DNA of 64,000 nucleotides from Lytechinus pictus. Its lineage: Eukaryota. Below the pieces are notes generated by a model that was not told where the DNA came from, made no database searches, and saw only the letters and a list, made by a program, of their open reading frames with translations. This document shows, piece by piece, positions 25,926-54,839 of the stretch. A program made the translations under genes and the position numbers. The DNA is taken from assembly GCF_037042905.1 (NCBI RefSeq), contig NC_087250.1, positions 6,698,001 through 6,762,000 on the forward strand, given 5' to 3'. Numbering within the stretch: position 1 is the stretch's first letter; every line of letters begins with the position of its first letter.

Positions 25926-25958
<33 letters not shown>

Positions 25959-28919: not shown

Positions 28920-29440
28920 ATTAGTAATTATGAGCCTGGTAATGACATGAATGATGATATGACTACCAGGTTGTGGAACTGTCTGAGATCCTTCAACCTA
29001 CTGACCCATCTAAACATCTCAGACTCATCTCTCAGTTTCCCTCAATCACCCCCTCAACTACTATCCGTCACAGCGCTATCAGCTGAGAGATTGACGTCAC
29101 AATGCTATGAAGGACTGATCTCATCGCTCCCTGGTTTGGTAAAGATCGATATCACCACTGATAATGCAGATAGAGACATATCCCAGATCACTGCTGGTCT
29201 CAGGCGAACAGGAGGACATAAACTCACACGCATTAACTTTCACGCACCGCCATCATTCCAACCAGAGAAGAGTCGTGTATCGAGAGACACCATGAGAGCA
29301 CTGGGTCTGCTGATCAGACAATATACCAAGAACCTGCAGTGGATTGGTTTGTCTGGAGTTATTGGTTTGAAGGAAGAAGATCTTGCTGAATTCCTTGAGT
29401 CGTCGACATCTTTGGCATCATTGGCTCACCTGCATCTAGA
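28920..29440 (+). CDS. Internal exon (LRR module 1) of an LRR protein, probably NLR-type immune receptor
   Basis: Pyrimidine tract + ttcag acceptor before 28920 and GA|gtgagt donor after 29440. 521 nt, phase 0-2. Translates ISNYEPGNDMNDDMTTRLWNCLRSFNLLTHLNISDSSLSF...SLPGLVKIDI...TKNLQWIGLSGV...SLAHLHL with LxxLxL periodicity. Clearly paralogous to the exons at 43041 and 54340. The NLR assignment is recognition of protein style, not a search result. Confidence 0.85.
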
Positions 29441-30292
29441 GTGAGTTTTTTTTTAACCATATGGGCTTATATCTTGCCGATTTCAACTGTCACTGTACGG
29501 AGTGTCAGAAAACAAAGTAGATGTATAAATGGATATTTGCTTCCGTAATAGTATGGATCCTACTAGGATCCATGATGACAGGTAGGCGACTCTGACTTAT
29601 ATATTTTTTTTAATACACACTAAATTGAATTTAGCAGCCAGTCGTATGTCCTCAAAATATATCGATACCTTTATATTTACCGACATCCCTCGACCCTATC
29701 TATATCGAGAGTGACTGTCACGTGGGAGTGACTTTTACCTACTGCTGCTTGACACCAGATAAGGAATACGTAAAACTGATAATTACAGTTATCAAAATAT
29801 TTAATCAAATCTCTTCAATCTCTGTTGTTTTCTTTTGATTGATTAACGATAATACATGAAAATATACATGGATATTGATAGCAGAATATACCTTAACAAT
29901 AATGGTTAAATCGATCCCCTATCATATCTTCTTGCCTGACATGCCCCACTCGGCCCTGGTGGTCGGTCCAGTTCCTGGCCTCCGCAGCTTGCGATGTCGC
30001 TCGATGCATCCACTGCTTTACTTCCACTCGGCCTCCACAGACAGTGTTGCCCCTTGATGAGTAGCCACCAGATAAGAGAGATGTGGCTTTGACAAATTAG
30101 TGGACGAGATTGAGCCCCCAAACTGAATTACTGAAATTACCCTGCTAATATACCCTACCGTTACTAGGACTAACTATAACATTTTATAAAGTAATTCAAA
30201 GTACCTACATCCCTCGACCCTATTCATATCGGGAGTGACAAAAGCAATTTGAAGTAAAGCAATTATAATAATAGTACTACCATTAGTAGCAT

Positions 30293-30352
<60 letters not shown>
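30293..30352. repeat. (TAG)n microsatellite
   Basis: Direct inspection. Confidence 0.95.
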
Positions 30353-31271
30353 AAGTAATAATAATAATAAGTATACTATTAAAAATAACAATAACAATTT
30401 GCTCAGGTGCTCTTTGCATCATTACAAAATGATTTGTGTGGTTTGGGAATACAAATATATTTATCTATTCAAATTATGAAATCGGGGTTACTGATATTTT
30501 TGTGGCTCATCGGTATTGTGTCTTCCCACTTGACAGAGCTCCGTAAACTGAGGGCCTATGAGACTGCTGTTATGTAATTGCTTTGTGTTACTATTATCGA
30601 ATGGTAATCAATCGCATAAGAACACTTTACCACGTCACCCATATAAATGAAATAAATTTAAAGTATACAATCATTAACACTTTTGATACCGACACAGAGT
30701 AAACTACAAGGCACTCGTTGAAGTTTTGTTTACAACCCTTAAAAGAACATCCACGATCAGCTACTAACATAATTTTATCCAGAAAGAATTCCCCAGCGGG
30801 ATAATCTCCGGAATGTAATGATTTTTATTTTATTTATTTTTTTTATTTGGGGGGGGGGGGGGACAGACATGGCGTATGGAACAAAAACAAAAGTATCCAG
30901 ACAATCTGGGAGTTAGCAAAACTATTTTCGATACAAAAATATGATTTTTTTTTTCTGATATGAATTTTGGCATATTACTCAGAAAATGATATAATTTTCA
31001 CGCCTTTCCCTTTTCCATTTTTCTAAAAGTTTTGGGGCCAATACCAGCATGTCCTTCCCATCTGTACTTAAACGATTTAAGTAGTTGAAGAAAAGTTCAA
31101 CGTTATATAAGCTTACGCTTTCGACGGCATAAACACATCAATCGTATGTGCATCAGTGATATCAGGATCAAAATCAATATCAAGATTCCGATGACACAGG
31201 TTCTTACCTGAATAATGTGCCACTATTTTCCCTAACCAATTTCAATTTTCTATATTATTACGATAATACAG

Positions 31272-31320
31272 ATGTCTTGATAGTTGGTGTTTCAACTTTG
31301 ATGAACTGTCAGGCGTTCAG
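31272..31320 (+). CDS. 49-nt micro-exon (linker of module 1)
   Basis: tacag|A TGT CTT GAT AGT TGG TGT TTC AAC TTT GAT GAA CTG TCA GGC GTT CAG|gtaagc. Phase 2-0 restores the frame between exons 28920 and 43041 (CLDSWCFNFDELSGVQ). Homologous to 50724-50772. Confidence 0.8.
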
Positions 31321-32202
31321 GTAAGCATGTTGTGACGGTCCTGTACTGAATGAATATCGCCTTGCATTCCAACGATGTTCTTAACCAACTTTTATGAGGC
31401 TGGGTAATATATGGATATAAGAATATATTCCTATATCAAAAATCGACAAAAGAGACGTCGTTAAAAATATAAGAAAATATGTTTGATGGGGACACATTAT
31501 TGCCAAATTGCAATTGAAATGTAACATTTTCAGATTTGCGAAACAAAATCCTTTTAAACGTAATCTTCATTGATTTGTTTTATATTGCACAGGGTTTTTG
31601 TGGTATTTTTTATATTTCTATCAGTGAAAAATATCTGATTAATTTGAAACATGTGTAAAGTTTTGGTGATGGGTCAGTAATGTAAACTTTATTCGAATAT
31701 CTTGGAAACATATTACATTAGTAATTCAATGCACTGTTACCCAGTAGAATATAAATTTGACATTTTTTGGCACATATAATTGACATTTAGATCTGGTGTC
31801 CTGTTTCAGAAAATGTTCTCATGTTTATTTGAAATAGCCGTTAGAATACCTTCGTTACATTAATTGGATATTAAAAAGAAACTTAAGACGATTATATGAG
31901 ATTTTCAGCCCATCACATGATCGAGATTTTGACTGAAACAAGTCAAGCATAAGCAAGGGGATAGGTTGCATCGGTTTTGATTAAAGTTTTTATTTAAATC
32001 GGGTAAATTCACTTAATCATTGACCCTCCTAATTTTAATTATATTAGACAACAAGACTGGTAAAATTGGTAACAAGTTGGTAAAGGAAATAATGTGTTGT
32101 CTCACGATGTGGCAAACTGAAATTTAGACGTTTTGACTACACCTGCTAGTCTTCGTCAGGCAATGAAGTGGACAATAGCTGCGTGCGCCTTTTATACCGT
32201 AA

Positions 32203-32365
32203 TACCTCGGTCACATTTGCTCTACGGCGGCAATACGGCAAGTCAAAAACAGCCGTTTTAATCTTATTTTGTACCAGCTACGTATAGGTGGATTGAATAG
32301 AAAAGAATAAAACGGCTGTTTTCGATTCGCCGTACGGCCACCGTAGAGCAAATGTGACCGAGGTA
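32203..32365. mobile_element. PIF/Harbinger-type MITE
   Basis: TIR TACCTCGGTCACATTTGCTCTACGG / CCGTAGAGCAAATGTGACCGAGGTA with 3-bp TSD TAA. Confidence 0.85.
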
Positions 32366-32494
32366 TAAGCTGCGTGCAGTCAATTCCGGAAAAGCCGCTA
32401 TGATTGGTCGGATCAACCGACCAATCAGAAGCCGCGGACGGTGCGATCGCTGGGCGGCATGCGGAGGTCGTGGAAATCCCGTCGGCTGCCGGCG

Positions 32495-34734: not shown

Positions 34735-35705
34735 CGGTTAAAAATAATCAGCAGTGCGCTGCCTGCATATAACTGGCGCCAATCAAGAATAATCAGCGCC
34801 ACCTTAATCTAAATCGGCGCCGGACAAGAATAATCAGCGCCATTTGGTTATAAATCGGCGCCAGTCGAGAAAAATCGGCACTGCCAGAGTCTAAACCGGC
34901 GCCGATCAAGGATAATCTGCGCCACCTAAATCTAAATCGGCACCAGATAAAAATAATCGGCGCCATCTGGTTATAAATCGGCGCCGGTACAGAAAAATCG
35001 ACGCTGCCTGAGTTCTTAACCGGCGCCGATCAAGGATAATCAGCGCCACCTAAATCTAAATCGGCACCAGATAAAAATAATCGGCGCCATCTGGTTATAA
35101 ATCGCCGCTGCCAGAGTCTAAACCGGCGCCGATCAAGGATAATCTGCGCCACCTAAATCTAAATCGGCACCAGATAAAAATAATCGGCGCCATCTGGTTA
35201 TAAATCGGCGCCAGTCGAGAAAAATCGGCACTGCCAGAGTCTAAACCGGCGCCGATCAAGGATAATCTGCGCCACCTAAATCTAAATCGGCGCCGGGTAA
35301 GAATAAACGGCGTCATCTGGTTATAAATCGGCGCCGGTAAAGAAAAATCGGCGCTGCCTGAGCTCGTAACCGGCGCCGATCAAGGATAATCGGCGCTGCC
35401 TGAGTCTTAACCGGCGCCGATCAAGAATAATCAGCTCCACCTAAATCTAAATCGGCGCCGGACAAGAATAATCAGCACCACCTGGTTAAAAATCGGCGCC
35501 AGTCAATTATGAATTGCCGCTGCCTGAATCTTACGTGACGTCGGTAAAAATAATCAGCACTACTTGTTCTAAATCGGCGCCGGTCAAGAATAATCAGCGT
35601 CCCCTTGTTCCAATAAATAGGCGCCGGTAGAATAATGAAGAAGGGCCTATTGCCAACCAAATCTAGATCGGCGCCGGTCAAGAATGGTCAGCGGCACCTG
35701 GTTAT
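34735..35705. repeat. GC-rich minisatellite, ~21-bp unit around AATCGGCGCC, with higher-order repeats
   Basis: Dozens of aatc(g/a)gcgcc units. Longer blocks repeat nearly exactly (e.g. 34850-34930 vs 35200-35280). Confidence 0.9.
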
Positions 35706-36128
35706 ACATTTTATTGTTGATTGGTCATAACAAAGCTTATCGCATGCCCTTACAGAGTGGACTCGGGCAGGGCAGTTGCCCACAGAATGACAGATGTCAT
35801 GAAATCTTTAATTATTAAAAAAATCCCAGAACCATACAAAAGCGTAGAGCAAATCCTTTAATTTTGATCTTATTTTCTAATGCTTTCAGTATTGCCAACC
35901 AAATCTAGATCGGCGCCGGTCAAGAATGGTCAGCGGCACCTGGTTATACATTTTATTGTTGATTGGTCATAACAAAGCTTATCGCATGCCCTTACAGAGT
36001 GGACTCGGGCAGGGCAGTTGCCCACAGAATGACAGATGTCATGAAATCTTTAATTATTAAAAAAATCCCAGAACCATACAAAAGCGTAGAGCAAATCCTT
36101 TAATTTTGATCTTATTTTCTAATGCTTT
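35648..36128. repeat. Near-perfect tandem duplication, period 242 bp
   Basis: 35648-35886 matches 35890-36128. Confidence 0.95.
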
Positions 36129-37250
36129 AATAAAAAGAAGGTCAGTCACTTTTCTTCTTTACACATTCCACATTGTGCCACCTCTATGGCCTTTAGTTTA
36201 AGACAGCTACTGTAGTGTTTTATGAAGATGATTCGATATTTTAGCCCAAATCTTTGCTAAAACCCGTTGCTTGTACCGGGAGTGTATAATTACGCAACCA
36301 GTCGTATATTGAGATTGAGCTACACAACTCGTTCTTTATTTAAAATCGTGCTTAAATTATCCGCTTCTCAGATTGGAATATACAAATTTTCAGCTCGCGC
36401 TTCGCGTTCGCATCATTTCTGTAGCAAAACCCCATACTTTTCATGATTAAATAGGTTAATAGATGTCCCTATTTCAGGACTAAACGTCAAAAGAACTCCC
36501 GCTTCGATTTGCAATAATCTTTTGCTGGATATAATCTTGTTCTTTATTACAAACGTCCATTAAACTGTCATTTTTTCAGATCGAAATATCAACATTTTAA
36601 GCTCGCGCTTCGCTCTCGCATCTATTGTTTTTTTTAGATACCCATCTTAATCATTGGTACCAAAAATGCATAGAATATCAAGCTTTCTGGTCAGAATATA
36701 AAGAAATTTCAGCTCGCCCTCGGCATTCGCATTATCTGTGTAGTGAGATATGTATCCTCCTCATGAGTTACTACAAACAGTCCTAAACAGGCACCTGTTT
36801 TCAGGTCAGTGTACTAAAAATTTCAGCTCGCGCTTCGCGCTCGCATTAATTTGTTGGTGAGATATGTGTTTCTATCTCATGAGTCATATAAATATATATA
36901 TATATGCATATGTGTGTGTGTGTTTGTGTGAGTTTGTTTGTTTTGTGTGATATCGAGCGCCTTTGGAAAGTTGATTCATGATTTTGCCCCCCAAATCTTA
37001 AAAAAAGGATCGACGCCCCTGTGTGTATATATATATAGTAAAAAAAACTTGTATCTCTATTAATTATACAAAAGTATTGGCCTCATCGCAATAAAAGGGT
37101 TAATACACGAGATTTTGTAATCGCACATAACATGCATAATTTGTGTTACTTTTTGCTTGTTTCTTTCTTTAATAAGTTTTTCAATCTCTCTCTATATATG
37201 TTTATAATGGTCTATATTATGGTTGTTCCACTTTATATGTTTGTCATTTT

Positions 37251-37289
37251 GCCTCCGACGAAGATTCTGCTAGGATCGAAAGCTTAGGC
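37251..37289 (+). ncRNA. Variant minimal hammerhead ribozyme (U4C), likely Penelope pLTR remnant
   Basis: GCCT-CCGACGA-a-GATTC-tgcta-GGATC-GAAA-GCTT-AGGC. Stem I GCCT/AGGC, palindromic AGCU stem III, core has CCGA in place of CTGA. Confidence 0.5.
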
Positions 37290-38288
37290 CCCTTTTTTAC
37301 TTTCTATATATGTTTTAGAAAGATTATATGTTTAAATTGATGTATATTTCTGCTATAATGAGATATGTTTAAGTGGACTTCAGGGAATGGTCGTACGCAG
37401 CAAGGGGGAAGGGGGGGCACATTCGCGATCTGCTGTTGTGAAAAAAATTGTTTTTTTCCTTAACATTTCATGAAAACTATGAAAAATGTGCAAATGTGAG
37501 ATGTGCACCAAATTTTCGAGTCTTGCCCCCCCCCCCCCCGGATATATTATCTGCGTGTGGTCATGCAAAATGGCATGACTGGAAATCCTACATTTTGAAA
37601 AGAGCGTTTGACAGGGTCAGACTTTACCCCTTTTTCAACATTTTCTTTTATGGCGCCGGTGAAGTGCAAAAATATGTGCGCCGCCCGGCAGTGCGCCCCC
37701 CCCCCTTTCGCCAAAAGCTGGATCCGCCTATGCACAATGCAATTAATAGCAAAATCGAATGACGAGAGCTGTACAGGGGAGGGTGGAATCCCTCTCGCTT
37801 AGCCTGGCGGAAATCATCGGACATCGATGGATAGCGCCACCTCCACACTAAACTCAACCAACCAACAACGCATGGAATCTTGTAAACATCGCTATCGAGT
37901 CTGCCGGGCATAATTCGAGCGTGAATCACGAGTAAATTTAAAGAAAAATATAAATATGTCATGAGTATTGAGTATCTAATCATGTTTTGTAAAAGCAAAC
38001 TGGATATCATATCCATGTATAAGTAATAAAAATGGAATATAACATTAATTTGAATGATTATTGTTGTATTGATCTAGTATCGGAACAGTATACTTGCGAA
38101 ACATAATGGTTATTCAATACATTTTTGCACAGTAGAATTTAGAATTGTCATTTTTGCTGCACTTAGGATTCAATTTAGATCTGGTTTCCAGTGTCGGTAA
38201 TTTTTTTATGTTATTAGAAATAGCCGTTAGAATACTTTCTTTACATATTTAGAAATTGGACTTTGAAACATAACTTATATAGATCATA

Positions 38289-41200
38289 AGTAGTATAAGA
38301 ACGTCTCCAGCGTCATGACGTAATGTTACGTAGCCCTCATGAATATTAATGAGGGTCATGAATATTAATAAGGGTCGTGAATACATAATGAGGGTGTCTT
38401 GGGCGTCATGACGTCATCCGAGCCCTAGCCTTAACCCTAGCCATAACCCTAACCGTAAGAGTACCAGCAACTGTAACCCTACACGAAACCCTAACCCTAC
38501 CCCAAACCCTGAACACGATGGAAGATGATGCTACTGACGTCAGTCAGTGTCATCATGGACGACATCGATAAGGACATCGTTGGATTGCAACAGGGAAGTG
38601 CAATGGAAGGGGAAGGAACACGACGTGACATGAAATGGGTGGGGGTATAATAATATAATAAAATACAAGGGGAGTTCTATGACATCATACTCGATATAGT
38701 CATCCATGACATCGTTGGATTGCGACAGGGGAGTGTAGAACGTGATGGGACATGAAATGGAGGGGTAAAACAACAGGTTAAAAAACAAGGAAACCTCTAT
38801 AAAGGGTTGAGGAAAACCGTCATTCGTCATTATTGCGACGAAAAAGGAGTAACACTCAAAAACTGGGACCGTCTACATACAACATGTGTAATACAACCGC
38901 AAAACGCCGACGATACCGAATGGTGGCAATAATTTCAGGAACAAGTGGAAAAGGCGGATTTGCTCATGGTCATCGAATATCTGGCCATTATCGAGATTTT
39001 CAAAGACATGAACAAATATCCAAAGACATGGGTGGAAGAATTGATCAAAGAAAATCCTCGGATGAAAGTACGGCAATCGTTGGAGTGCTTGGACCCTTAG
39101 AAGTTGGTCAAATTTTAACCCCACGTAGCGAGAGTGATGTGGATGAGACGAGAGCTGATGGACCCGTACCTCATCACAGAGTATGGGTTGTCTATAGCAT
39201 CATAACTTTATTATTTGTTTTATGAATATGAATTATGAAATATGTAAATTCATAACGTGTATGAAACATGGACATGACATCATAATTATACATAAATTAT
39301 GAATAAATTATGATTAAAGCTATCGTGACATCATACCGATGATGTAGTGGTCCCAAACTTTGCTTGGTTTAGAGCCCTTGGTTGTTTGCTCTCGGTATTA
39401 AGCAGCTATAGGCTTGGATTTGATTCTCAATGTTTACCTCGTTGAGTTTCATGCGAATGCATATATGGGCAGTATCGTCGTAGCCATCAATGATCGATTT
39501 TCTGTATGATAGGACTAGTATGGCGAAAAACAATGGGGGAAGTTGTAAAGAGCGGAGGAAAATGACAATTTATTCGTCAGTTTCGTCATTTGGTTATTTT
39601 CATAATTTTGATAATTTTGTCATTTCGTCATTATTTGTTGTTCTGTCATTTGTCAATCGGTCAATTATTCATTTTGTCGTGCTGCCATTTCGTCATTCCA
39701 TCCTTTAGTGGGAATAGGGTGGGAAAGGGGAGGATCGATCGGCAAGGGAGGAGCCCTGAGGGACAAGTATCCGTCTTTTCATCATTGTACAATTCGTCAT
39801 TTTCATGCCATCGTTTTTTAATTTTTTCTCTCGTTTTGTCATTTTGATAATTTGGCCATTCGGTAATTATTCTACCATTTGTCGATCGGTCAATAATTTA
39901 TTTCTCGTTCAGCCATTCGGTTATTTCGCCGATTTATCATTTTCTTCCTTACGTTATACGCTGTTGTTCTGCTTTTTAACAGTTTCCTAAAGAAATTGTT
40001 CATTGAAAATCAAGAAACATATGCATCATTTTTTTTTTCTACTTTGTTTAATCTGTCTATCATCATTGTACGATTCGTCATTTTAATGTCATCCTGTTTG
40101 TGTTATATCCATGCCATCGTTTTAATGTTTTCTCTCGTTTTGTCATTTTGATAATTGTCGATCAGTCAAATGTTCATTTTCTCCTTCTGTCATTCGGTCA
40201 TTTCGTCGTTTTGTCATTTTCTTCCTTACGTTACGTCGTTGTTTTGTTACTAACAGTTTCCAAAAGAAATGGTTTCATTGAAAATCAATAATAATAATTA
40301 ATAAAGATTTCGGGGGTATAAGAACTTAGGCAGCAATATTGTTTTGGTTGAATCGTTGACATGGGTGTCGATCGTGGGGTGGGGGATATATTTCTCCCAA
40401 TAATATCACATTATAATAATTGTTATGAATCATCTGACAAGTATAGGAGGGAGTAGAAGATGAACAATCATTGTGTATACTTACGATGGCCATCTAGTTT
40501 GTTCTCTTATATCTTTCTTGATTTTCAATGAAACTATTTCTTTTGGAAACTGTTAGTAACAAAACAACGACGTAACGTAAGGAAGAAAATGACAAAACGA
40601 CGAAATGACCGAATGACAGAAGGAGAAAATGAACAATTGACTGATCGACAATTATCAAAATTACGAAACGAGAGAAAAAATAAAAACGATGGCATGGAAA
40701 TAACACAAACATGCAGGATGACATTAAAATGACGAAATGTACAGTGATGATAGACAGATTAAACAAAGTAGAAATTTAAAAAAAATTATGCATATGTTTC
40801 TTGATTTTCAACGAACAATTTCTTTAGGAAACTGTTAAAAAGCGGAACAACAGCGTATAACGTAAGGAAGAAAATGATGAATCGGCGAAATAACCGAATG
40901 GCTGAACGAGAAATAAATTATTGACCGATCGACAAATGGTAGAATAATTACCGAATGGCCGAATTATCAAAATGACAAAACGAGAGAAAAAATTAAAAAA
41001 CGATGGCATGAAAATGACGAATTGTACAATGATGAAAAGACGGATACTTGTCCCTCAGGGCTCCTCCCTTGCCGATCGATCCTCCCCTTTCCCACCCTAT
41101 TCCCACTAAAGGATGGAATGACGAAATGGCACCACGAGAAAATGAATAATTGACCGATTGACAAATGACAGAACAACAAGTAATGACGAAATGACAAAAT

Positions 41201-42549
41201 TATCAAAATTATGAAAATAACCAAATGACGAAACTGACGAATAAATTGTCATTTTCCTCCGCTCTTTACAGCTTCCCCCATTGTTTTTCGACATACTAGT
41301 CCTATCATACAGAAAATCGATCATTGATGGCTACGACGATACTGCCCATATATGCATTCGCATGAAACTCAACGAGGTAAACATTGAGAATAAAATCCAA
41401 GCCTATAGCTGCTTAATACCGAGAGCAAACAACCAAGGGCTCTAAACCAAGCAAAGTTTGGGACCACTACATCATCGGTATGACGTCACGATAGCTTTAA
41501 TCATAATTTATTCATAATTTATGTATAATTATGATGTCATGTCCATGTTTCATACACGTTATGAATTTACATATTTCATAATTCATATTCATAAAACAAA
41601 TAATAAAGTTATGATGCTATAGACAACCCATACTCTGTGATGAGGTACGGGTCCATCAGCTCTCGTCTCATCCACATCACTCTCGCTACGTGGGGTTAAA
41701 ATTTGACCAACTTCTAAGGGTCCAAGCACTCCAACGATTGCCGTACTTTCATCCGAGGATTTTCTTTGATCAATTCTTCCACCCATGTCTTTGGATATTT
41801 GTTCATGTCTTTGAAAATCTCGATAATGGCCAGATATTCGATGACCATGAGCAAGTCCGCCTTTTCCACTTGTTCCTGAAATTCTTGCCACCATTCGGTA
41901 TCGTCGGCGTTTTGCAGTTGTATTACACATGTTGTATGTAGACGGTCCCAGTTTTTGAGTGTTACTCCTTTTTCGTCGCAATAATGACGAATGACGGTTT
42001 TCCTCCACCCTTTATAGAGGTTTCCTTGTTTTTCAACATGTTGTTTTACCCCTCCATTTCATGTCCCATCACGTTCTACACTCCCCTTTCGCAATCCAAC
42101 GACCTCATGGATGACTATATCGAGTATGATGTCATAGAACTCCCCTTGTATTTTATTATATTATTATACCCCCACCCATTTCATGTCACGTCGTGTTCCT
42201 TCCCCTTCCATTGCACTTCCCTGTTGCAATCCAACGATGTCCTTATCGATGTCGTCCATGATGACACTGACTGACGTCAGTAGCATCATCTTCCATCGTG
42301 TTCAGGGTTTGGGGTAGGGTTAGGGTTGCTGGTACATTCAGGGTTAGGGTTTCGTGTAGGGTTACAGTTGCTGGTACTCTTACGGTTAGGGTTATGGCTA
42401 GGGTTAAGGCTAGGGCTCGGATGACGTCATGACGCCCAAGACACCCTCATTATGTATTCACGACCCTCATTAATATTCATGACCCTCATTAATATTCATG
42501 AGGGCTACGTAACATTACGTCATGACGCTGGAGACGTTCTTATACTACT
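38289..42549. mobile_element. Non-autonomous Polinton/Maverick-type foldback element
   Basis: Termini AGTAGTATAAGAACG...CGTTCTTATACTACT. 6-bp TSD ATCATA (38283-38288, 42550-42555). Near-identical inverted arms 38289-40288 and 40518-42549 around a 229-bp spacer. The paralogous intron copy near 53736 has a single ATCATA (empty site). Confidence 0.85.
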
Positions 42550-43040
42550 ATCATATCCTGAGATTTTCAGCCTATTCTATGATTGAGAAGCTCGTTTAAA
42601 TAGACACGATAAGATAACGCAGTAATGTTATGTTTCCGTTTAGATTTTTAAAACTTCAAACCACAACCGTTTTGGGTGCACATTCATTAATAAAATATGT
42701 CAATCAAACGGAATAATGAAATGTCATTTGGGGGATTTACCCAAACTAAATATAACCCTTCCATTTTAAAATCTTATTTATAAAAAACTACGTATATATC
42801 ACTTGGTATTTCTCTAAGATTTTATCATTAAAATGTTTTTTCAAGTGTCTGAATAATAAATAAAATAAATCATCGTGGAATTCTGGGATATTCTCGTTTT
42901 TCTGAAATACCTTTATAATTTATTTCACGAAATGCATGAAAGGTGTGAAGAAAAATCAGAACCCAATATTAGTTCATGCATCAATTATGTTTTTGACACG
43001 GTATTTTTATCCAGCTTTTCGAATTTGTATTTTCCTTCAG

Positions 43041-43342
43041 ATAAACAAATGTCATCTGTCTTCTGAGTTAACTGCTAGAACGTGGTCCTGTCTGAGATCC
43101 TTCACATCACTGAACCATCTCACCATCTCAGACTCATTGCTTAGTTTCTCACTATCACCTCCCGAGCTACCGTCCGTCACAGAGCTAATAGCCTGTAAAC
43201 GGACGTCACAATGCTATAAAGGGTTAATCTCATCACTACCTGGGTTGCGATATATTGAATTCCAAGATGCAGCTAGAGATGACTTTGTTGAATTTGTCGA
43301 GTCTTCAATACGTTTGACATCACTGCAACGACTTGTGATAAA
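43041..43342 (+). CDS. Internal exon (LRR module 2, internally shortened)
   Basis: tttccttcag|ATA AAC AAA TGT... and AA|gtgaga. 302 nt, phase 0-2. INKCHLSSELTARTWSCLRSFTSLNHLTISDSLLSF...SLPGLRYIEFQDAARDDFVEFVESSIRLTSLQRLVI. Paralog of the other two large exons. Confidence 0.82.
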
Positions 43343-43605
43343 GTGAGAGTTCATGCTTTTAGCTCCTTATTTGCCAAGGATGTCCATTCTTACAATAGCC
43401 GTATGCAAAATGCTTTTCCTGGTTAGGTGCTTAAAGCGCTACTATATCACCACGCTGGATATAAATTGTAGGCTTATTGTAATATTCTGAACTAATAAAA
43501 ACGTTTTAGGTAATCAGTAATGAGATAATAATACGTGGTAACTTACACTTAGTGCAGTTTCCAAAACAATACTTAATTCCGTTTTCCTGCCTAGCTAAGC
43601 TTACT

Positions 43606-45400
43606 TAGTCCAGGATAGAAGGTGTCTGATCTTTTTTTTTAGATATACAATGTTTTTTGATGGTTTCTTATCAATTCGAGGGTGCTGATTCCGAACCTGA
43701 ATGATGCCACTCGTGTAACCTTGAGCATTTTCGGCAAATTGGCAAAGTCAAATATGGCCTCCAAAATAATCAAATTACCCATGAAAATCATAAAATTGTC
43801 CGCACATTGGCTATAAAGTACATGTTATTGTGCTGCCGGAGTGAAATACTCTCTGAAAAAAGAAAGAATTTTGACAAAATATTCAGTTCCTTGGAAAGGA
43901 AGACCTTCGGGTTATAGTTATTTAGTTAATCTTTTTCCTTTCCCGGCATCCATGTGACTCTCCTATTCCTATTGTTTGTATATGTTGTTTATGTATTGAT
44001 TATGCCGAATAAAATAATAAAAAAATAATAATAATTTAGGCCCCTGTACAATATTAATAGGGAAAATTAATTTTTACGAAAGTGGGCACTGCAATGCAAG
44101 TAATAATGATCTATGAGTAAGGTAATGTTTGAAAACATGATTGCTAAAGATATGTATCATTTCTTATCTCATGTATGTGATAAATCATTGTACTTAAAAT
44201 ATAATTTTCAACGAAATATATTATTCGGGTTTCATATTTGTGTTAAATATTGTATTTTGACTTTCAAATTGGCCGCCAAAGACATTGAATGCATTATGTA
44301 CAATCGATCTGGGAAACCGATTTTCACAGTAGTCAGCACCTTAAAATGCATAATAATTGTGATCTTAGAGTAAAATATTGTATGAAAACATACTTCCTAA
44401 CACGATATATCATTCATTTTGCCAGGGAGGTGATAAATAATGTATTTTTTAAAGTCAAAATGGCCGCTACAGGCCCTGACGGTAGGCCTATGATGTACTA
44501 TGCGAATGGGCACAAATAATTTTAACAGAATTTGTCTTTGTTTGACTAAATGGTGTTGCATGTATGAGAAAAATATTGTCTGAAAATATGATTTCTAACG
44601 AAATAGATCATTTATATTTGAAATATGCTTTTTGTGGAAATTATCTTTCCCCATTCAAATTTTACATATTACGGTAAGGGACTATGGCGGCAATTTTCAA
44701 TTTCAAAATGCAGTATTCGTCACCTTTCGGACACAAGCTTTGATATGTTTCGTTAGAAATCACCATGTTTAGACAATACTTTACACTTACATGCAAATTC
44801 AGCATTTTTAAAGTAAAAATTCTGTCAAAATTATCTGTCCCCTGTAAGAATGTACATAATGCTTTGGGATCCTATGGTAGCCATTTTAAATTTCAAACTA
44901 AGGCATTTATTACCTTCTCGACAAATATAATTATGATGTATTTAGTTAAAAACCATGATCAAGACAATATTTTTCTTATACATTACATAGTTACGTGCAT
45001 ATTTGGTTCTCATTCTTGTGAAAATTTGTTTCCCTATACCCATATTACATAATTTAGTTAGGGCTTGTAGCGGCCATTTTGAAAGTAAAAATACAGTCAT
45101 TATCACCTATATGGGAGAGGAAATGTTATAAACAATGTATGATTAACTAAACAACTCTGTTCAATTTATTAAACTTTAATCGCCTTTTCTATTCATCTGA
45201 TCTATCTATATCGACCCAACATATCAACGATTTTTCTTAACTCTACGAGGTCCAATACATGTATTATTTTGAATTTGTATTTTCTTTACATATATATATA
45301 TATATATATGAAAACCATTTGTAAACCATTTTTCAGCCATTGGCTGCCAAATGTCCAAATATGTATTGCTTTTTGAATAAATAAACGATCAATATATATG

Positions 45401-45431
<31 letters not shown>

Positions 45432-48047
45432 TTCATAAAAAAAAATCATTTGTTTACAGTATTTTCCTCATACAACAGAATTATATGGATTTCTTAGTCA
45501 GGCAAATTCTAATTCTCACAAAAATATTTGTCCCCATTTACATTGTAGCTCTAAGGGCCCATAGAGGCCATTTTGAATTTCACAATACAGCAGTTATCTC
45601 ATGCATGACAAAAAAAATGGTGTCTCGCTAGAAAAAGCATGTTTTCAGACAAAATGTCACTCGTAGATTACAATTACATTCATTTTATTGTTCTTACTCT
45701 TGTGAAAATTAGTTTCTTCATTCCCTTTGTTCACAATACAGGTAGGGCATATAGCAGCCATTTTGAATGTCAAGATACAGCAATATTACCGAAATATATT
45801 GTATATATTGTCAATATTATATATTGTACACTGTGTAAGGCTTTATTATGGCAGCCACTTTGAATATCATAATACAGCATTTATCACATCATATAGTATA
45901 AAAATGACATAGTTTTATAACAATCAGGTTTTCAGACAGTAGTCCACTCGTAGGTCACAATCACATGCAATAATAGTGCTCTTGTTTTAAAATTATTTTC
46001 CCCATTCTTATTCTACATAATAGCGTATACAGGGGCCTATGTCGGCCATTTTGCATATCAGTAGGAGTGGGCTATACATGGGTCAAAAATACTTTTTTTG
46101 TAATTTCAATATGACAACAGTTTTTTTTTATTCCTTGTAATGTATCTCTACATGAAATGACAATATTTTTTGTCTCGGGTCCGAGAAAAAAGAGTGCCGG
46201 GCCAAAATCCAAAATGGCCGCCAAAACCCCCCAAAATCACAGTTTTGGCCACAACTTTTTTATTTGGTGGTCAATTTCTCTGGTTTTGGTGTCTATTAAT
46301 ATGTCTTGGGGGGGAGGCAATTTGTTTTTCCTATAATTAGTACTTTTAAACTATTATTTGTAGAGTTAAAAGGTAATTATACCTAAATTTTCCAATTTTC
46401 AAAGCCTTTTTTCAGCCAAAAAGTAGGTTTTATCATCCTGGGGTTCTGGGATATTAGATGGTACGAGGTCAACAATAGCAAGCAGCTTTATATAGCTATA
46501 TTGCTTTTATTCCTCCACTTTGGGTTTACGGATATTTGTGAAATATATCTTATTAGATAAAAAATGTCAATTATCCATTGGGGCTATACAGTATACATAT
46601 GTAAAATGTACTGTACATACATACTGCACTGCATAAATGCATTGGCCACAATGACAGATAACAAGGCTTGTATAAACTAGTGTCATAGAAATGAGCTCTC
46701 AGGTTTAGAATTAGATGCCTCAGAAATTGAAAATATATGTTTTGTCTCAGAAATTTAGGACATGTTTTGTCAAATATGCTAATTCAGGGGGCGGAGAGGG
46801 GTAATTTACACTGTAGCTATTCTGGGCCCCGTTGCATAAAAATGTACCATTATGTTAACTTAACTTAATGGTAACTTGCATGCAATCCTTTATTCTGATT
46901 GGCTGTTGATCAGCGTTACCATGATACTAGTAGTTACCCGACCTTATAAACATAGGCCAGTTAGACACCAGAACCAGGTTAAAAAAAACCTCCAAATTAA
47001 GAAGATATGGCTCACATGTATGTGATATTTACATGTAAGTGTAATTTACGTTGCTGGTTTCACCATGTACATCAGCTGACAGGGAATCAAATTCACAATC
47101 TAATTCTAAACCTTTGAAGCTTATTTCTATGACACTACAGTTTATATACAGGCCTTGTCATATGCCATGGTGGTCAATGCATGGATATATGCAGTGTAGT
47201 ATGTACAGTGCATTGCAAACCGTATAGCCCTTATGGATAAATGACTTTTTCTTATATTTGATAAGATATATTTCACAAATATCTGTAAAACCTTAAGTGG
47301 AGGAATAAAAGCAATATAGCTACATGAAGCTACTTGCTATTGTTGACCTCGTACCATCTAATATCCCAGAACCCCAGGATGATAAAACCCACTTTTGGGC
47401 TGAAAAAAGGCTACAAAAATGGGAAAATTTAGGTATAATTACCTTTTAACTCTACAAATAATGGTTTAAAAGTACTAATTAAAGGAAAAACAAATTGCCT
47501 GCCCCCAAAAACATATGAATAGACACCAAAACCAGAGAAAATGACAACCAAATAAAAAAGTTTTGGCCAAAACTGTGATTTTGGGGGGTTTTGGCGGCCA
47601 TTTTGGATTTTGGCCCGGCACACTTTTTTCTCGGACCCGAGACAAAAAATATTGTCATTTCATGTTGAGATAAGGTAAAAGGAACACAAAAAAACTGTTC
47701 CCACAGTAAAACCAAAAATCACCCATTTATAGCCCACTCCTAATATCAGTTAAATAATTTTTTTTTTTCAAATATCGTTTTTCCAACGAGTATTTCACTT
47801 CCGCACAACAACTACATGCATTTTATAGTTAATTTGTGGGCAATTTTACGATTTTCATGGGTAATTTGCATATTTTGGCGGCAATATTTGATTTAGCCAA
47901 TTTTCGGAAAATGCTCAAGGTTACCAAAGTGGCATCATTAAGATTCGGAATCAGCACCCTCGAATTGAAAAGAAACCATAAAAAAACATTGTATATCTAA
48001 CAAAAAACAAAGTTCGACCCCTTCTCTATGTGGCCTATCCTGGACTA
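43606..48047. mobile_element. Academ-like non-autonomous element
   Basis: TAGTCCAGGATAG / CTATCCTGGACTA termini. 3-bp TSD ACT. Subterminal inverted repeats. Contains nested element 46062-47742. Confidence 0.8.
46062..47742. mobile_element. Nested long-TIR DNA element (~650-bp imperfect arms)
   Basis: TAGGAGTGGGCTATA / TATAGCCCACTCCTA termini. 7-bp TSD ATATCAG. Arms ~46062-46720 and ~47095-47742. Confidence 0.8.
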
Positions 48048-48069
48048 ACTCCCATTTATAACGATACAG

Positions 48070-48183
48070 GATGTTCAGGAGGAGACGAATGATTCGGCAA
48101 ATTTGTTTAGCAAAGTGGTCAAGGTCCTTTTAAAGGAGAAATACATTGATTATGAATATGTTGTTATACATATCAATGGAAAG
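48070..48183 (+). pseudogene. Possible extra or decayed exon (114 nt)
   Basis: tacag|GAT GTT CAG...AAT GGA AAG|gtaatt. Open only in phase 0 (DVQEETNDSANLFSKVVKVLLKEKYIDYEYVVIHINGK), which does not fit the phase-2 donor at 43342. Confidence 0.25.
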
Positions 48184-49076
48184 GTAATTATGTGGGGATT
48201 ATCATTAAGTCATTTGAAAGTAACGAACATAATACATAAGGTGGAAATCGCCAATTAAAAAGCGCTAAAATGCCTCTCCGAAATATGCCTCGCATCGGTC
48301 TCTGAATTCTCTCGAATTTGATGACGTACATCATGAAACCAGAAACATGATTGGCTCTCCCACATCAAGCTCCTCTCGCGTGCAAAACCTATTGCAAATG
48401 CTAGTGAACGTGCAATTTCTCCACTCTGTCACGGAGTAGTTCTATCATGAAATAGAAGAAAACCCAGAAGTCATTATCTAGATTTGGATTTCGAAACAAA
48501 TATTGTTGAAGAAGAGTTTGGAGAGTTACAAAGTCAAGTGTCAAAAGAGTCATATTCCGTATTTGCAGGAAGCTTGGCCAAATTATGATCGTTTGTCATA
48601 ATGATCTTTCTAAAGGCATGGTTACTTCATAATGTGGATATTGTTGGCCTTCTCGCTTTACTCCGTTGTAACCAAAGAATACCAATGTTCATATTAGCAA
48701 TTCGGATAAATTAGTCTATAAAGTAGTAGTTATCCTTTTAGAATTTTAATGAAGAAAACAGGAGGGAATTCCGTTATCTCCTTACACCAAACTGAATACA
48801 AAACGCGATTCATGGGCTCAGCATGGACCTAGTAGGTCCATGGGCTCAATATGTGACTAGCCTGTTTTCGGTTATCTATAAGTTCAGCAGTAGTTAATTG
48901 GATGCTGCTTTCAGAATGGTTTTCTATCATCATTACTCCCAGCCATGTACCTTCTCTTTAACTCGGTTAAAGTCATATTGCAATAAACACTTTAAGATGG
49001 TGATTGATATTAAACTAAAAACGAGCCATGTTTTTCGGGGGGGGGGGGGTTGTGTCAATTTGAATGAAGTGTAAAT

Positions 49077-49754: not shown

Positions 49755-50723
49755 TTGTTTGTATTATTACCTCCATGGCCATGGTGATTTCTTTTTCCTC
49801 CAAGAAATATGTGTTCTCATTTTGATAACGATTATGATAATAATGATACGAGGGAGATATTGTTTATATTGTGATGAGACATATATTTCTGAGCATTGCG
49901 ATCACGACGATAACTGTAATTAGTAATGTAATATTATATTATGCTCGCCAAATACCTCTTTTTTCAAGCATCAGATTTGTATGTTGCTAATTGGATGCTG
50001 CTTTCAGAATGGTTTTCTGTCATCATTAGTCCAAGGCATGTACCTTTCTTTAAATCGGTTATTCTAACTTCATATTGCAATGACGTGATGACGCTTGAAA
50101 TGACTATTGCAGATGACCATTCACAAAACTATTTAATAATGGTAATTGATATTAAACTAAACATGAACCATATTTTTCGGGGTTTTGTGGGGGGGGGGGG
50201 TCAATTCGAATGAAGTGCAAAGTTACTTTTTCTTATTACCTGTTATGTTAACGGCGATTTCTTTTTCTTTGAATAAATATGTATTCTCATTTTTATAACG
50301 ATTCTGATAATAATGATACGAGGTACACATTGTTTATAATGTGATGAGACATATACTACTTTCTAAGCATTATGATCACGATGATAACTGATCAGTAATG
50401 TCATATATTATGATCGCCAAATAACTATTTTCTCAAGAATCAGATTTGTATGTAGCAGATACTTATCTGTTTACTACACTGGAGTTGAAAATGATCATCA
50501 AAGAATTGCCGATATACACCCGCCAAACACACCCACACACACAAGGTCCCCCACTTTTGTTTACTTTCTCATATTATCAATGTTAGAACATCACACGAGC
50601 AACTCATTGCTGCTGTGTTTGTCACAATAATGTTGTTATCCATGGTTATTATTCAAATAACTTGAGGCACCTAGTTCACATCTGAATGATGTTTCATTTG
50701 TTTATTATCAATTCCGCACACAG

Positions 50724-50772
50724 AACTCTTGATAAATGGCGATTCCACTTTGATACCACCTCAGGTGTTAAG
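50724..50772 (+). CDS. 49-nt micro-exon (linker of module 2)
   Basis: cacacag|A ACT CTT GAT AAA TGG CGA TTC CAC TTT GAT ACC ACC TCA GGT GTT AAG|gtaagc (TLDKWRFHFDTTSGVK). Same length, phase and LDxWxFxFDxxSGV motif as 31272-31320. Confidence 0.8.
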
Positions 50773-51469
50773 GTAAGCATATGTGTATTATGCTGTTGTA
50801 TATTACTTTTGTAAATTTCCGGTTGCTATATAACTACAACATTATCAGGGCCGGATCCAGCTTTCACTAATGGAAGGAGGGGATTTTTTCCACATGTTCC
50901 CACATGATATTTGCTTCTTTTATGGGTATTCACAACTAAAGACTGAACTTTTACGTACACATTAACTTTATTAATGCGAGCGTGAAGACCCAGCTGAATT
51001 TTGTTCGTGTATTTAGACCTTGCAATTTAATATTTTGAACAATTTATAATCATGATCAAGATGTATCAAGCTAAACAATATATGATTGTACTGAGCTCTG
51101 GCAGAGAATTTCCATAAACTTACTTTAAAGTGGACCTGTTTAGAACTGTTTGCAGTGACTCATTTTAAAGAAAAATCAAACAAGTAGATTAAGTGAAAAA
51201 TTAGATAATATCATACAAACAAGAAAGTTTTGATTTTTCAAAACTTCCAACAGTTTTATTTAATTTAGCGTTGGAGACTTTAGATTGGCCCCATATGATA
51301 TGTTATAGTGGTGTAAGGCAACTTTTCAAAAGGGTCAAAATGCCATTATTTAAAAAAGTCTCACTCAAATTATTCTTTCTTCAAGAATAATATCAAACAA
51401 CGTATGCTACTCTCTTTATATATTCATTACTGTGCCAGGGGGAATCGGTACTTGGAAAAAACTTTCAAC

Positions 51470-52467
51470 TTTCAAAGTTATGATGCCAATTCAAATATAC
51501 CCCCAACACGGCCCAAGTTTATTGACTCTAAATTACCTTTGATCTTAGTCATGTGACCTGACACTCACACATGATATTTATATATTCATGGTTACTCTTA
51601 TGTTCAATGTTTTATGAACTAGATCCATAAACTTTTAAAGTTATGACACTTCCACAAATACCCCCAACATTATCAAAATTCGTTGACCCTAAGTGACCTT
51701 TGACCTTTATTAGTCATGTGACCCGAAACTCGCACAGGAAGTCCAGGGATACTCAATTGATCTTTTTTATATCAAATTTCATGAACTAGATCCCCTAAAA
51801 GTTCAAATTTATGATGAAAATTCCACAAATAACCACAGCATGGTCAAAATTCGTTGACCTTGGTCATGTGACTTGAAAATCACGCAGGATCTTTGGTGAT
51901 ACACTATTACCCTTATGTTTAGGTTTCATGAACGAGGTCCTTATACATTCTAAGTTATGAGGACATTTCCAAAACTTAACCTACGTGATTCAATATAGCA
52001 ACAGTGCAAAAACAGTTGTTGAATAATTGTTCACAAAAGAAAACATTCATCTGATAATAAAATGCTTTGTCCATTGACCCAACATGACCTTTGGCTATAA
52101 TCACGTGACCTAAGTCGTGTCCAAAACATACTTAATATCCCTAATGTCTATCTTTTATTAAATTCATGTGTAGATCCATTAACTTTCAAAGTTATGCCAA
52201 TTGAATAGATATCCCCAACACGGCCAAAGTTCACTGACCCTAAAAGACCTTTGACCTTGATTATGTGACTTGAAACTCAAAGAGGATATTAAGTAATTGC
52301 TTATTACCCTTATATTCATGTTTCAAATATACTTTTAATTTATGATGACATTTAAAAAAAACTTAACCTTGGTTTAGATTTCAATGTTGACAACGCCGCT
52401 TTTACGACGGCGGAGGCGGCGCGCCGCCGCCGTCGGAAAAGCGGCTGCTGTGCAGGCGATACAAAAA
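51470..52467. repeat. Interspersed repeat with internal TGACCTTTGACC-type tandem units
   Basis: Repeated atacccccaaca..gttcactgaccc..gacctttgacct..gtcatgtgacc units, ending GCAGGCGATACAAAAA. A similar family occurs in opposite orientation at ~22850-23320. Confidence 0.7.
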
Positions 52468-52873
52468 CGGGAATTTATATTTATTTTGAACGCTTACTGG
52501 TTGCATTGATCTAGTGTCGCAACACTACACTGACGAAACACAAAAGGTATTCAATGTATTTTTACCCAGTAGAATTTAAATTTGTAATTTTCTTATTTTT
52601 TGATTACCACATTTAGATATGGCGCCCAGTTTCGGTAATGTTCTAATGTTTATTTGAAATTAGCCGTAAGAGTACCTTGTTACGATACTGCAACAAATAA
52701 CAATGTAATGTTTTTTAATTTGATTTCCTTTTCTTTTATTACAGGAGTTGATTATACATAAGAAATAAACATAATAATGGTCTTACGTCTCTTGAAATTG
52801 TGATAATAATCCAAAGTAAAATCCAAGTTGGCTGGCGAAGATTCCTTAAATTAAAGTTTACGATGATGGCGAT

Positions 52874-52999
52874 CAGTAGCGTACCGTGAGCCGGAGGAGA
52901 CAAAGCATTGGGGGGGGGGCACTGCATTGTTCACAGACAATGCAGTGCCCCCCCCCCCCCCCCAATGCTTTGTCTCCTCCGGCTCACGGTACGCTACTG
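52874..52999. mobile_element. hAT-type hairpin MITE (126 bp)
   Basis: Near-perfect palindrome CAGTAGCGTACCGTGAGCC...GGCTCACGGTACGCTACTG with 8-bp TSD ATGGCGAT. Confidence 0.9.
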
Positions 53000-54339
53000 A
53001 TGGCGATGATGAAACTGATGTTGAAGCACAATGAATAACAATAGTCATTGTAATGAGTTGAAATGTCCGTGAAGACGATGTTGATGATGATTAACAGTCA
53101 ATTTCAGCAATCCATGGGTTGAAGAGTGTTCATTAAAACTGGTTGATGATCTCTATGAGAACTGAGAATTCCTCTCTCAAAATTACTGCAAACAGTTCAT
53201 TGATGGCGGGCAAATAATTCCACAGAAGATAAATAATCCAGGTGGAAATAAAGTCTGCTCTGACATAAAGTCTGGCATGATCGAAACTTTAAGTTCTGAT
53301 CTGATATGATATTATCCGATCTGATATGATAATGTCCTTTAAGAAACTGCCAGCTTATATATACAAACTTCAACTATTCTGGAAGTTTATAGTATTCACT
53401 ATATATTAAGAACATTCTTCTTCTTTCTGGAGCAATCAAATTCTAAAACATTCTTGAATGACCTCAGTGAAATTAACAATTGTAAACAAAATAGCTAATT
53501 CTATCGTCCATTTTCCACTGTGGACAGACTCTATTGTTTACATTCTCTATTGTTTGCAAATTCCAGAAATAACCAAGATTATTCAAAGATTACTCATGTC
53601 TAACAAAGCTGTACTATAGAGCCTTCTGGAACATTTTTAATCATTCCATGCTATGAATATCCTTAAAGGGGAAAATAACTAAATAAACTTTACATATTTA
53701 GTAATTGGATATTGGAAAGCAACTTATAATATCATTATACATCATATCCTATAATTTTCAGCCCATCCCATTCTTGAGAATGTATTTTATATAGACAAGA
53801 CAATAATAAACAGGGGTGCATCCGTTTGCATTACAGTTTGATGTAAAATGGGTAAATCTTTTTCAATAAAACAAATTTTCTTCTTGAAACTTCACACCAC
53901 GAGCATTTTGGGGCACATATATTGATAAGATATCGTAATCAATTGGAACAGTGACATTCGATTTTCTTTTTTGGGGGTAGCAAAACAAGAGATAGCCTTG
54001 GGGTTTTTTCAGTAATATATATATATATGGGTGTGTTCGTGTGTGAATATATTTCATATAATTCGGATTTTGTTCAGAATTTCTCCTCTGAAATAATGTT
54101 TCTTTAAGAGTATGAATATTCAATATGAAACATCACCTTTGATTTATTTATTATCGCGGTTTTTTTTTTTTGCGGGGGGGGGGGGTCGGCGGGGGTTGGC
54201 TGAAATACATTTATTTTTTTTTTTACGAAATGCATTAAAAGTGTGAAGAATAAATCTGATCCCAAAATTATTACATGAACCAAATAGGTTTTACACAACA
54301 TAATTGTTATCCATCTTTGCTATTAATATTTTCCTTCAG

Positions 54340-54839
54340 ATAACCGCATGTCGTCTGTCTTCCAAGATGACTTCTAGAATGTGGCCATGTCTTACATCTT
54401 TCAACTCACTGAAGCATCTTACCATCTCAGACTCATCTCTCAGTTTCTCTTCACCTCCTGAGCTACCATCGGTCACAAAACTATCAGCAAAGAGTGTGAC
54501 GTCACATTGCTATGAAGGTCTGATTTCATCGCTCCCTGGTTTGGAAGATATCGATATCATTATGGATGATGCAGAGGGAGACATGACCCATATCACCGCT
54601 GGTCTTCGTCAGACGGGAGGGCAGAATCTCAAACATATATATGTTTATGGTCCGTCGTCACTTTCACCAGAGAGGAGCCGTGTATCGATAGAGACAATGA
54701 GAGGACTGGGTCTGTCCATCAAAGAACATACACAGAACCTGCAGGAGCTCCATCTGCGATGTGTAGATTGTACAAACGAGGATGCCTTAGTTTACCTAAT
54801 GGAGTGCTGCAGACGTGTGAAGACGATGCAATACGTTAG
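54340..54839 (+). CDS. Internal exon (LRR module 3)
   Basis: ttccttcag|ATA ACC GCA TGT... and AG|gtaagt. 500 nt, phase 0-2. ITACRLSSKMTSRMWPCLTSFNSLKHLTISDSSLSF...TQNLQELHLRCVDCTNEDALVYLMECCRRVKTMQYV. Confidence 0.85.

Follow-up and report, generated by a model that had tools for sequence, protein, structure and literature searches.

The repertoire of NOD-like receptors (NLRs) in sea urchins is among the largest known, and its expansion was reportedly described by Hibino et al. in 2006. To our knowledge, almost nothing is known about how the sensing domains of these receptors are built or how they vary. Here we analyze a window of 64,000 nucleotides (nt) of AT-rich eukaryotic DNA from Lytechinus pictus (G000:C6:6698001-6762000, + strand), which contains five exons. 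Very probably, these are the coding exons of one paralogue in an echinoid-specific family of NACHT-leucine-rich repeat (NACHT-LRR, NLR-like) genes and encode its C-terminal LRR region. That NLR genes are greatly expanded in sea urchins is documented in excerpts of two published papers (PMC4852459, PMC8662601), and excerpts of a third describe the LRR domains of NLRs as strictly exon-modular, with a 171-bp LRR exon (exon 5) of human NLRP3 being skipped (PMC6642158). In the full-text literature (subscription papers being outside the scope) we found no description of a micro-exon cassette or of LRR splicing in echinoid NLRs; the echinoid two-exon supermodule described below is implicit in existing gene models.

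Three large exons alternate with two micro-exons, and the first large exon holds a potential start codon (positions are those of the window, unless a contig is named).

28920..29440, + strand: E1, 521 nt, phase 0 to 2, a long internal LRR module exon (L type)
28947..28949, + strand: in-frame ATG (tenth codon of E1), to which the start methionine (Met) of annotated paralogue models is homologous
31272..31320, + strand: m1, 49 nt, phase 2 to 0, a linker micro-exon
43041..43342, + strand: E3, 302 nt, phase 0 to 2, a short internal LRR module exon (S type)
50724..50772, + strand: m2, 49 nt, phase 2 to 0, a linker micro-exon
54340..54839, + strand: E5, 500 nt, phase 0 to 2, the terminal LRR module exon (T type)

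All five exons are preceded by pyrimidine-rich acceptors ending in AG, and their donors read, in order, GTGAGT, GTAAGC, GTGAGA, GTAAGC and GTAAGT. The borders of the large exons are ttattcag/ATTAGT ... TCTAGA/gtgagt for E1, ttccttcag/ATAAAC ... GATAAA/gtgaga for E3 and ttccttcag/ATAACC ... CGTTAG/gtaagt for E5, lying within stop-to-stop frames at 28866-29444 (192 codons), 42906-43346 (146 codons) and 54304-54843 (179 codons), respectively. A scripted join of E1, m1, E3, m2 and E5 gave 1421 nt, i.e. 473 codons plus 2 nt, without a stop. The positions, sizes, phases and codon total of the original prediction, made from the DNA alone, were thus all correct on reading the sequence and joining the exons, as was its phase arithmetic, by which any large exon can be joined in frame to any later micro-exon. 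As candidates for the micro-exons we considered every open stretch of 49 nt between AG and GT in both long introns (19 and 15 were listed). The pair m1/m2 was the best, with 34 of 49 nt identical (26 of 49 for the runner-up pair), and a scan for the micro-exon motif over 204 kb around the window matched m1 and m2 only.

The large exons were also said to be paralogous to one another, and self-BLAST of the window agrees far beyond chance: E1 and E5 share 77.3% identity over 383 nt (E = 5e-57), E3 and E5 77.3% over 348 nt (2e-51), including 139 nt of upstream intron, and E1 and E3 78.6% over 168 nt (1e-23). The micro-exons, too, resemble each other on the count given above. Nevertheless, each large exon is nearer to exons of its own class in paralogous genes (75-86% amino acid identity) than to its neighbors in the window. 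At the amino acid (aa) level, E1 is 84% identical to the L module of the annotated relative P0007 and 78% identical to that of P0001, E3 is 82% identical to an S module of P0001, and E5 is 75-78% identical to the T exons of the paralogues. Likewise, m1 agrees with an annotated micro-exon of P0001 at 16 of 18 aa, and m2 matches the linkers of both P0001 and P0007. Judged by these comparisons, E1, E3 and E5 represent three conserved module classes: long internal, short internal and terminal. The strong divergence of the C-terminal halves of the modules, emphasized in the original prediction, is real, but is better read as a difference between three classes, each closest to its own class elsewhere. 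We considered hypervariability among copies of a single module as the source of these divergent halves and rejected it.

With E5 as the query, the protein collection yielded 61 longer relatives, from L. pictus, L. variegatus or Strongylocentrotus purpuratus or without species name, and 34 of them possess a NACHT domain (PF05729). The annotated relatives combine NACHT with one to eight modules, the T module being last, and two S. purpuratus proteins (P0002 and P0004) have NACHT followed by five to eight modules. In L. pictus, the genes LOC129263472 (models P0001, 1191 aa, and P0062) and LOC129263010 (models P0007, 744 aa, P0064 and P0065) are of particular use: P0001 and P0007 are built, in the order of the window exons, from long modules, linkers (16 residues), short modules (100 residues), the terminal module and, at the C terminus, a short tail. 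When P0001, P0007, P0002 and P0005 were compared with the window by tblastn, they matched E1, m1, E3, m2 and E5, and nothing else scored better than E = 0.35. The translated T exons of two loci (L002 and L004) reproduce the T modules of P0001 and P0007 without a single difference, so the genes of these two proteins are paralogues on the window's own contig, that of P0001 being located 235 kb upstream of the window exons. When the 3' part of P0001 was placed exactly on 20 kb of this contig, its exons measured 521, 49, 302, 49, 302, 49, 503, 100 and 51 nt and shared their borders and phases with those of the window.

The two-exon cassette is, therefore, common to the family and already present in an annotated mRNA model; the window holds an unannotated copy of it, and the window exons form the LRR part of a gene of the sea-urchin NLR family, with three conserved module classes. 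We infer the label "receptor" for this gene from its family membership. The copy in the window and the P0001 and P0007 paralogues are alike in module classes and their order, exon sizes and phases, strand and location in a tandem cluster, with modules 71-86% identical at the aa level. They differ in that P0001 has seven modules and P0007 five, whereas the window has three; the intron between the T exon and the tail measures ~0.9 kb in the paralogues and 31 kb for the window copy; and the latter is without a multi-exon model in the protein collection. What is catalogued from it lies within E5, in the form of an open reading frame (ORF):

54367..54843, + strand: P0079, 158 aa, 100% identity, reading through the E5 donor into a stop (AG/G TAA)

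The LRR nature of the modules, claimed in the original prediction, is borne out by fold, though not by sequence profile. An AlphaFold (AF2) model of the T module, computed from an alignment of P0079 and 76 relatives, has a mean predicted local distance difference test score (pLDDT) of 90.2 and a predicted template modeling score (pTM) of 0.84, and shows alternating strands and helices. Compared by VIA-align, this model gave Z-scores of 14.7 with the LRR domain of NAIP (root-mean-square deviation, rmsd, 2.5 Å over 151 of 158 residues), 14.0 with RanGAP1, 13.0 with both ribonuclease inhibitor and NLRP3, 12.9 with NLRC4 and 12.5 with NLRP1, the alignments with NLRs and ribonuclease inhibitor covering 146-151 of the 158 residues at rmsd values of 2.5-3.2 Å. 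Foldseek returned LRR proteins as its top matches, NLRC4 and NLRP1 first, all at E > 0.001 (best 5e-3), and the ESM Atlas gave unnamed clusters and F-box-type LRR matches at 0.90-0.93, which we regard as leads only. The assignment is based on the VIA Z-scores and on every top match being an LRR protein; as far as predicted structure goes, the T module has an LRR domain of the ribonuclease-inhibitor type.

For a view of several modules together, the whole of P0007, in which no Pfam family was found at E <= 0.01, was modeled from a 46-row alignment (pLDDT 80.6, pTM 0.69). Each of the four module junctions in this model shows three close-set strands without helices, the middle strand lying within the micro-exon linker, and ~300 residues (S module, linker, T module and tail) align to the single LRR domains of NLRP3, ribonuclease inhibitor and FBXL2 (Z ~14, rmsd 8-9 Å). 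The alignment and the junction strands suggest that the modules form a roughly continuous but irregular solenoid, as a matter of predicted geometry only.

Sequence variation is unevenly spread along the module. Over 77 T modules, mean entropy is 0.75 bits for the first 60 residues, which hardly vary, and climbs to 1.34 and then 1.78 bits in the final two repeats; high and low entropy alternate inside strands 90-94 and 127-131. Such alternation would be expected of strands whose residues are exposed and buried by turns; the variable positions are probably exposed and may form a recognition surface.

These results can be combined into a building plan. The LRR region is probably made of supermodules, each with about five or six repeats of the ribonuclease-inhibitor/NLR type and encoded by a large exon (phase 0 to 2) followed by a 49-nt micro-exon (phase 2 to 0), the stretch from the latter forming, in the P0007 model, a short beta linker that lacks a helix and leads into the following module. 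Module classes come in a fixed order, i.e. long internal, short internal and terminal, then two small tail exons. Within a module, the first ~60 residues are probably scaffold, with variation gathered at alternating beta-strand positions of the last repeats. Comparison of paralogues shows that module number changes as whole cassettes, together with their introns, are tandemly duplicated or lost, for which unequal recombination would be the mechanism. Skipping would be possible since the cassettes are frame-neutral, but it is not needed to explain this anatomy.

The original prediction proposed that the sensing region grows by intragenic cassette duplication, and at the level of the family this is borne out by the variable module number and by near-identical neighboring cassettes. 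Four tandem units on the same contig (described below) have 4, 9, 4 and 6 modules, so that the paralogues indeed differ in module number, and annotated relatives range from one to eight. Cassettes one and two of P0001 share 99% identity and the following pair 98%, implying, on sequence identity, a very recent tandem duplication or conversion, unless they are an assembly artefact. Within the window, traces of duplication extend into the introns, together with a mobile element inserted among them.

42902..43040, + strand: intron segment before E3, duplicated before E5 (54200-54339), 78.7% identity
38239-38287, 42546-42606 and 42645-42729, + strand: further colinear intron pieces, matching 53688-53964
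38289..42549, no strand assigned: mobile element in the m1-E3 intron, with arms 38289-40291 and 42549-40515, inverted, 2 kb long and 97% identical

Since intron was duplicated along with exon, the duplicated unit took in intron as well. The 4.3-kb element, whose arms are ~220 bp apart, interrupts the colinear duplicated pieces.

In order to find the ends of the gene, 80 kb upstream and 60 kb downstream were searched with the proteins of all 61 relatives. Upstream, on the same strand and 54 kb from E1, we found a NACHT exon (C6:6671322-6673064; PF05729 at 62.7 bits, against a cut-off of 26.7), followed after 330 bp by a module exon of a "first type" that starts in phase 0 and ends in phase 2 (...TCTCC/gtaagt); the two together occupy C6:6671.3-6673.9 kb. 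In the 53 kb between this first module and E1, the same search found no family exon, and on sequence grounds the link of the NACHT exon to the window exons is a candidate one. Downstream, no C-terminal tail exon was found inside the window; tail exon 1 is located 31 kb further on, at window position 86166-86265 (outside the window), with 100 nt (ttacag/G...CAC/gtaaga) and with phase and sequence as in the paralogues, and a candidate last exon, terminated by a stop, begins 3.2 kb past it, at window position 89445. The resulting order, NACHT, first module, long, short, terminal and tail, agrees with that of the S. purpuratus models P0002 and P0004.

On a larger scale, the window is the core of the third of the four tandem units, which are colinear on the + strand of C6:6.23-6.93 Mb and possess one NACHT exon, one T exon and one tail each. 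Their NACHT exons are at 6239376, 6386873, 6671457 and 6852433, those of units 2, 3 and 4 being 90-96% identical and that of unit 1 only 64%. In the cluster (6.2-6.9 Mb), strong Death-like matches (83-85% identity) were confined to C6:6232120 and 6842948, which belong to units 1 and 4. As regards the DEATH and NACHT exons for which the original prediction proposed an upstream search, the unit of the window has the NACHT exon, 54 kb away on the same strand, but no Death exon within a further 53 kb.

Several observations weigh against the five exons being the LRR region of a working NLR-family gene. Concerning the fold, the Pfam LRR families (LRR_1, LRR_4 and LRR_2) stay under their gathering thresholds (the best, LRR_4, at 15.7 bits versus 27; E1 has no match), and a sequence-profile search of the PDB with the 77 T modules gave only matches at E ~1 (FBXL2, FBXL17 and ribonuclease inhibitor). 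Concerning the gene, P0079, a single-exon ORF of one module, is the sole catalogued protein of the window. The Nei-Gojobori ratio of nonsynonymous to synonymous substitution (dN/dS), calculated against the paralogue's matching exons, is 0.95 for E1, 0.37-0.59 for E3 and 0.66-0.79 for E5. A micro-exon of phase 2 to 0 between the first module and E1 was found neither with the S. purpuratus linker motif nor by a generic scan for 40-70-nt exons with strong sites, and the first module would thus be joined to E1 out of frame as it stands. The introns that would connect the window exons with the NACHT exon (54 kb) and with the tail exon (31 kb) greatly exceed those of the paralogues, in which T exon and tail are 0.9-6 kb apart. 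Finally, a Death-domain exon was not found within 53 kb upstream of the NACHT exon, the query being the Death-like N-terminus of P0046 (PF00531 at 18.9 bits, under the cut-off).

The gene-related points (P0079 alone being catalogued, the ratio for E1, the missing linker and Death exons, and the great length of the flanking introns with their mobile elements) would be explained if the array were a decaying or fragmented copy, with E1, m1, E3 and m2 as relics and at most E5 expressed, as the 158-aa ORF. We consider this unlikely. Despite a synonymous divergence (dS) of ~0.12-0.22 from the paralogue's matching exons, the 1421 nt in five pieces are free of stops and frameshifts and all ten splice sites are intact, which argues for continued function, and both tail exons are intact and in phase. 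The high dN/dS is compatible with diversifying selection on some sites as well as with relaxed constraint. Moreover, LOC129263010 was once also catalogued as a protein of 159 aa (the older record P0086), and its current models have 641-755 aa, indicating that a short catalogued model is no sign of a short gene.

The many single-module models of 158-208 aa catalogued for relatives may have a simple origin. Every large exon ends in phase 2 before a GT[AG]AG donor (29438-29446, 43340-43348 and 54837-54843 in the window; 5927-5936 of locus L018), so an unspliced transcript hits a stop immediately (..G TGA or ..G TAA). The many models of 158-159 aa that end just past the donor, P0079 included, would be accounted for in this way. 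As to model starts, the annotated paralogue models begin inside the module array: the first residue of P0001 is the Met homologous to the ATG at 28947, P0064 starts at the same Met of the L exon (residue 115 of P0065), and P0065 begins mid-exon, which suggests that model starts within the array may reflect incomplete evidence. Contigs of one sequencing run (X1) equal 54459-54837 without a difference; the RNA nature of this run is a guess, and no conclusion on expression was drawn from it. Among the sequencing-run joints listed there was none joining E3, m2 and E5, and the cover over E3, at 90% likeness, could be derived from a paralogue.

With the five exons taken as the LRR exons of one family member, the extent of the transcript can be weighed separately. 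It is quite possible that they belong to a full NLR starting at the NACHT exon 54 kb upstream; they may instead be part of a NACHT-less, LRR-only transcript starting at the ATG of E1, a tentative but credible arrangement; and it is somewhat improbable that they form part of a decaying copy.

The original prediction further suggested that the sensing region is diversified by exon skipping, giving a combinatorial receptor system. What stands of this is the frame neutrality, which belongs to the two-exon cassette and not to the single exon, and one predicted pair of isoforms from S. purpuratus. Tail exon 1, like the micro-exons, is of phase 2 to 0, so that every large exon stays in frame when joined to tail exon 1 or to any micro-exon further downstream. 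A product without E3 and m2 would have the order L-T, common among annotated relatives (P0023, P0026 and P0028). The predicted isoforms X1 and X2 of S. purpuratus LOC105439913 differ by one clean deletion of 186 aa, placeable exactly on large-exon and micro-exon borders and corresponding to one cassette, and those of L. variegatus LOC121416908 have alternative L or T modules at the end. In addition, vertebrate NLR LRR exons are likewise modular, with exon 5 of NLRP3 skipped, in the excerpts cited above (PMC6642158). On the other hand, the isoforms of the two multi-module genes of L. pictus, LOC129263472 and LOC129263010, vary only at the start or tail. All of this isoform evidence consists of computational models in repetitive sequence, and the S. 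purpuratus pair is predicted over near-identical cassettes, for which misplaced reads or an allelic difference in copy number would look alike. Three modules would also give the window gene a tiny repertoire. We thus find it doubtful that regulated skipping of cassettes yields receptors of varied length and specificity from one gene. The broader idea, that echinoid NLR genes use two-exon supermodules as a regulated splicing toolkit (each with its own Met, donor stop and in-frame joins) from which varied-length sensors, NACHT-less decoys and single-module proteins would be drawn depending on tissue or infection, is to be treated as a speculation of similarly low probability.

It is very improbable that the three large exons are separate tandem genes with one module each, as the in-frame Met near the start of each, the immediate stop in a retained intron and the many 158-208-aa models in databases might suggest, given that phase-matched micro-exons lie between them, that paralogues splice the same order into one mRNA model, and that the class order L, S, T is invariable, each unit having a single T and a single tail.

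The introns were described in the original prediction as filled with transposons. In favor of this description are the 4.3-kb element with inverted arms and the other intron pieces that recur within the window by self-BLAST, but no Pfam family reached its cut-off in the eight window ORFs scanned, of which seven are intronic, lying between E1 and E5, and one is downstream of E5. Paired arms of the 4.3-kb element family are present at loci on contigs C2, C4, C5, C8, C15 and C17, at 85-96% identity, and in the 140-aa ORFs of the element no protein domain was found. Two intron stretches, 51525-52858 and 36184-37517, have summed contig depths in the thousands in all four sequencing runs compared, those of a second organism included, and belong to very abundant repeat families. 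Pieces of 23841-26731, upstream of E1, recur, mostly inverted, at 43632-48515 in the E3-m2 intron with 77-86% identity, showing that gene flanks and introns harbor the same repeat families.

Other repeats in the window include an inverted repeat at 46116-46716 and 47098-47699 (88%), an internally repetitive block at 34756-35640, two very young tandem duplications at 35648-36128 (239 nt, 100%) and 59857-60325 (234 nt, 99.6%), and a long tandem array at 1045-2060 with a period of ~31 bases, flanked by a perfect inverted repeat of 92 nt (504-595 and 1869-1778). Beyond the window, the intron between E5 and the tail contains an ORF of 464 aa (216-1607 of locus L022, window position ~74216-75607) with matches to Phage_integrase (29.7 bits) and DUF3504 and of QRICH1-like character, probably a mobile element of the tyrosine-recombinase kind, Crypton-like in appearance. 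Upstream of the NACHT exon, C6:6625-6644 kb (loci L013-L015) contains a reverse transcriptase of the LINE (long interspersed nuclear element) type with an endonuclease ORF, as well as an ORF for a Tc1/mariner-type transposase (DDE_3, HTH_Tnp_Tc3_2).

In summary, the locus is a so far poorly annotated copy for which the LRR and duplication claims are supported. Together with its three tandem neighbors, it shows a building rule, in which supermodules of a large exon and a 49-nt linker exon, of three classes, follow one another in fixed order. This rule offers a concrete way to re-annotate the fragmented models of the family and provides precise junctions at which splicing-based diversity can be sought. 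The finding extends a known principle, the exon-modular LRR domains of NLRs, to a family known to be expanded, and is useful rather than surprising.

Compared with known systems, the window family resembles the F-box or cysteine-containing LRR proteins FBXL2, FBXL17 and SKP2, which are among the best, non-significant profile matches (E ~1), align in structure with Z-scores of 11-13 and share a last-repeat pattern of the type L..L.L..C......L..L...C., but the window family has a NACHT context and no F-box, and the resemblance is one of repeat type only. The Death-NACHT-LRR subfamily of echinoderms and cephalochordates differs from the window unit, for which no Death exon was found within 53 kb upstream of the NACHT exon. 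Closer are the S. purpuratus proteins of LOC105440679 (P0002) and LOC105438970 (P0004), in which a NACHT exon precedes a first module, several long modules, the terminal module and the tail, an architecture to which the window unit would conform if its candidate NACHT exon belongs to it; their modules are 59-65% identical to E5. In contrast to the window, no full S-type (100-aa) module is labelled in any of the S. purpuratus proteins compared, with partial S-type matches only. Vertebrate NLRs such as NLRP3 lack detectable sequence similarity (by Pfam and PDB profile), and in NLRP3 one 171-bp exon encodes two repeats and its skipping has been observed, whereas the cassettes of the window are known from genomic sequence and use 521 or 302 nt plus 49 nt for about five or six irregular repeats and a helix-less linker. 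The two systems are nevertheless alike in having ribonuclease-inhibitor-type LRRs behind NACHT (a putative arrangement for the window copy) and repeat exons that preserve the frame and have their borders at a constant position near a beta strand, so that skipping would preserve both frame and fold.

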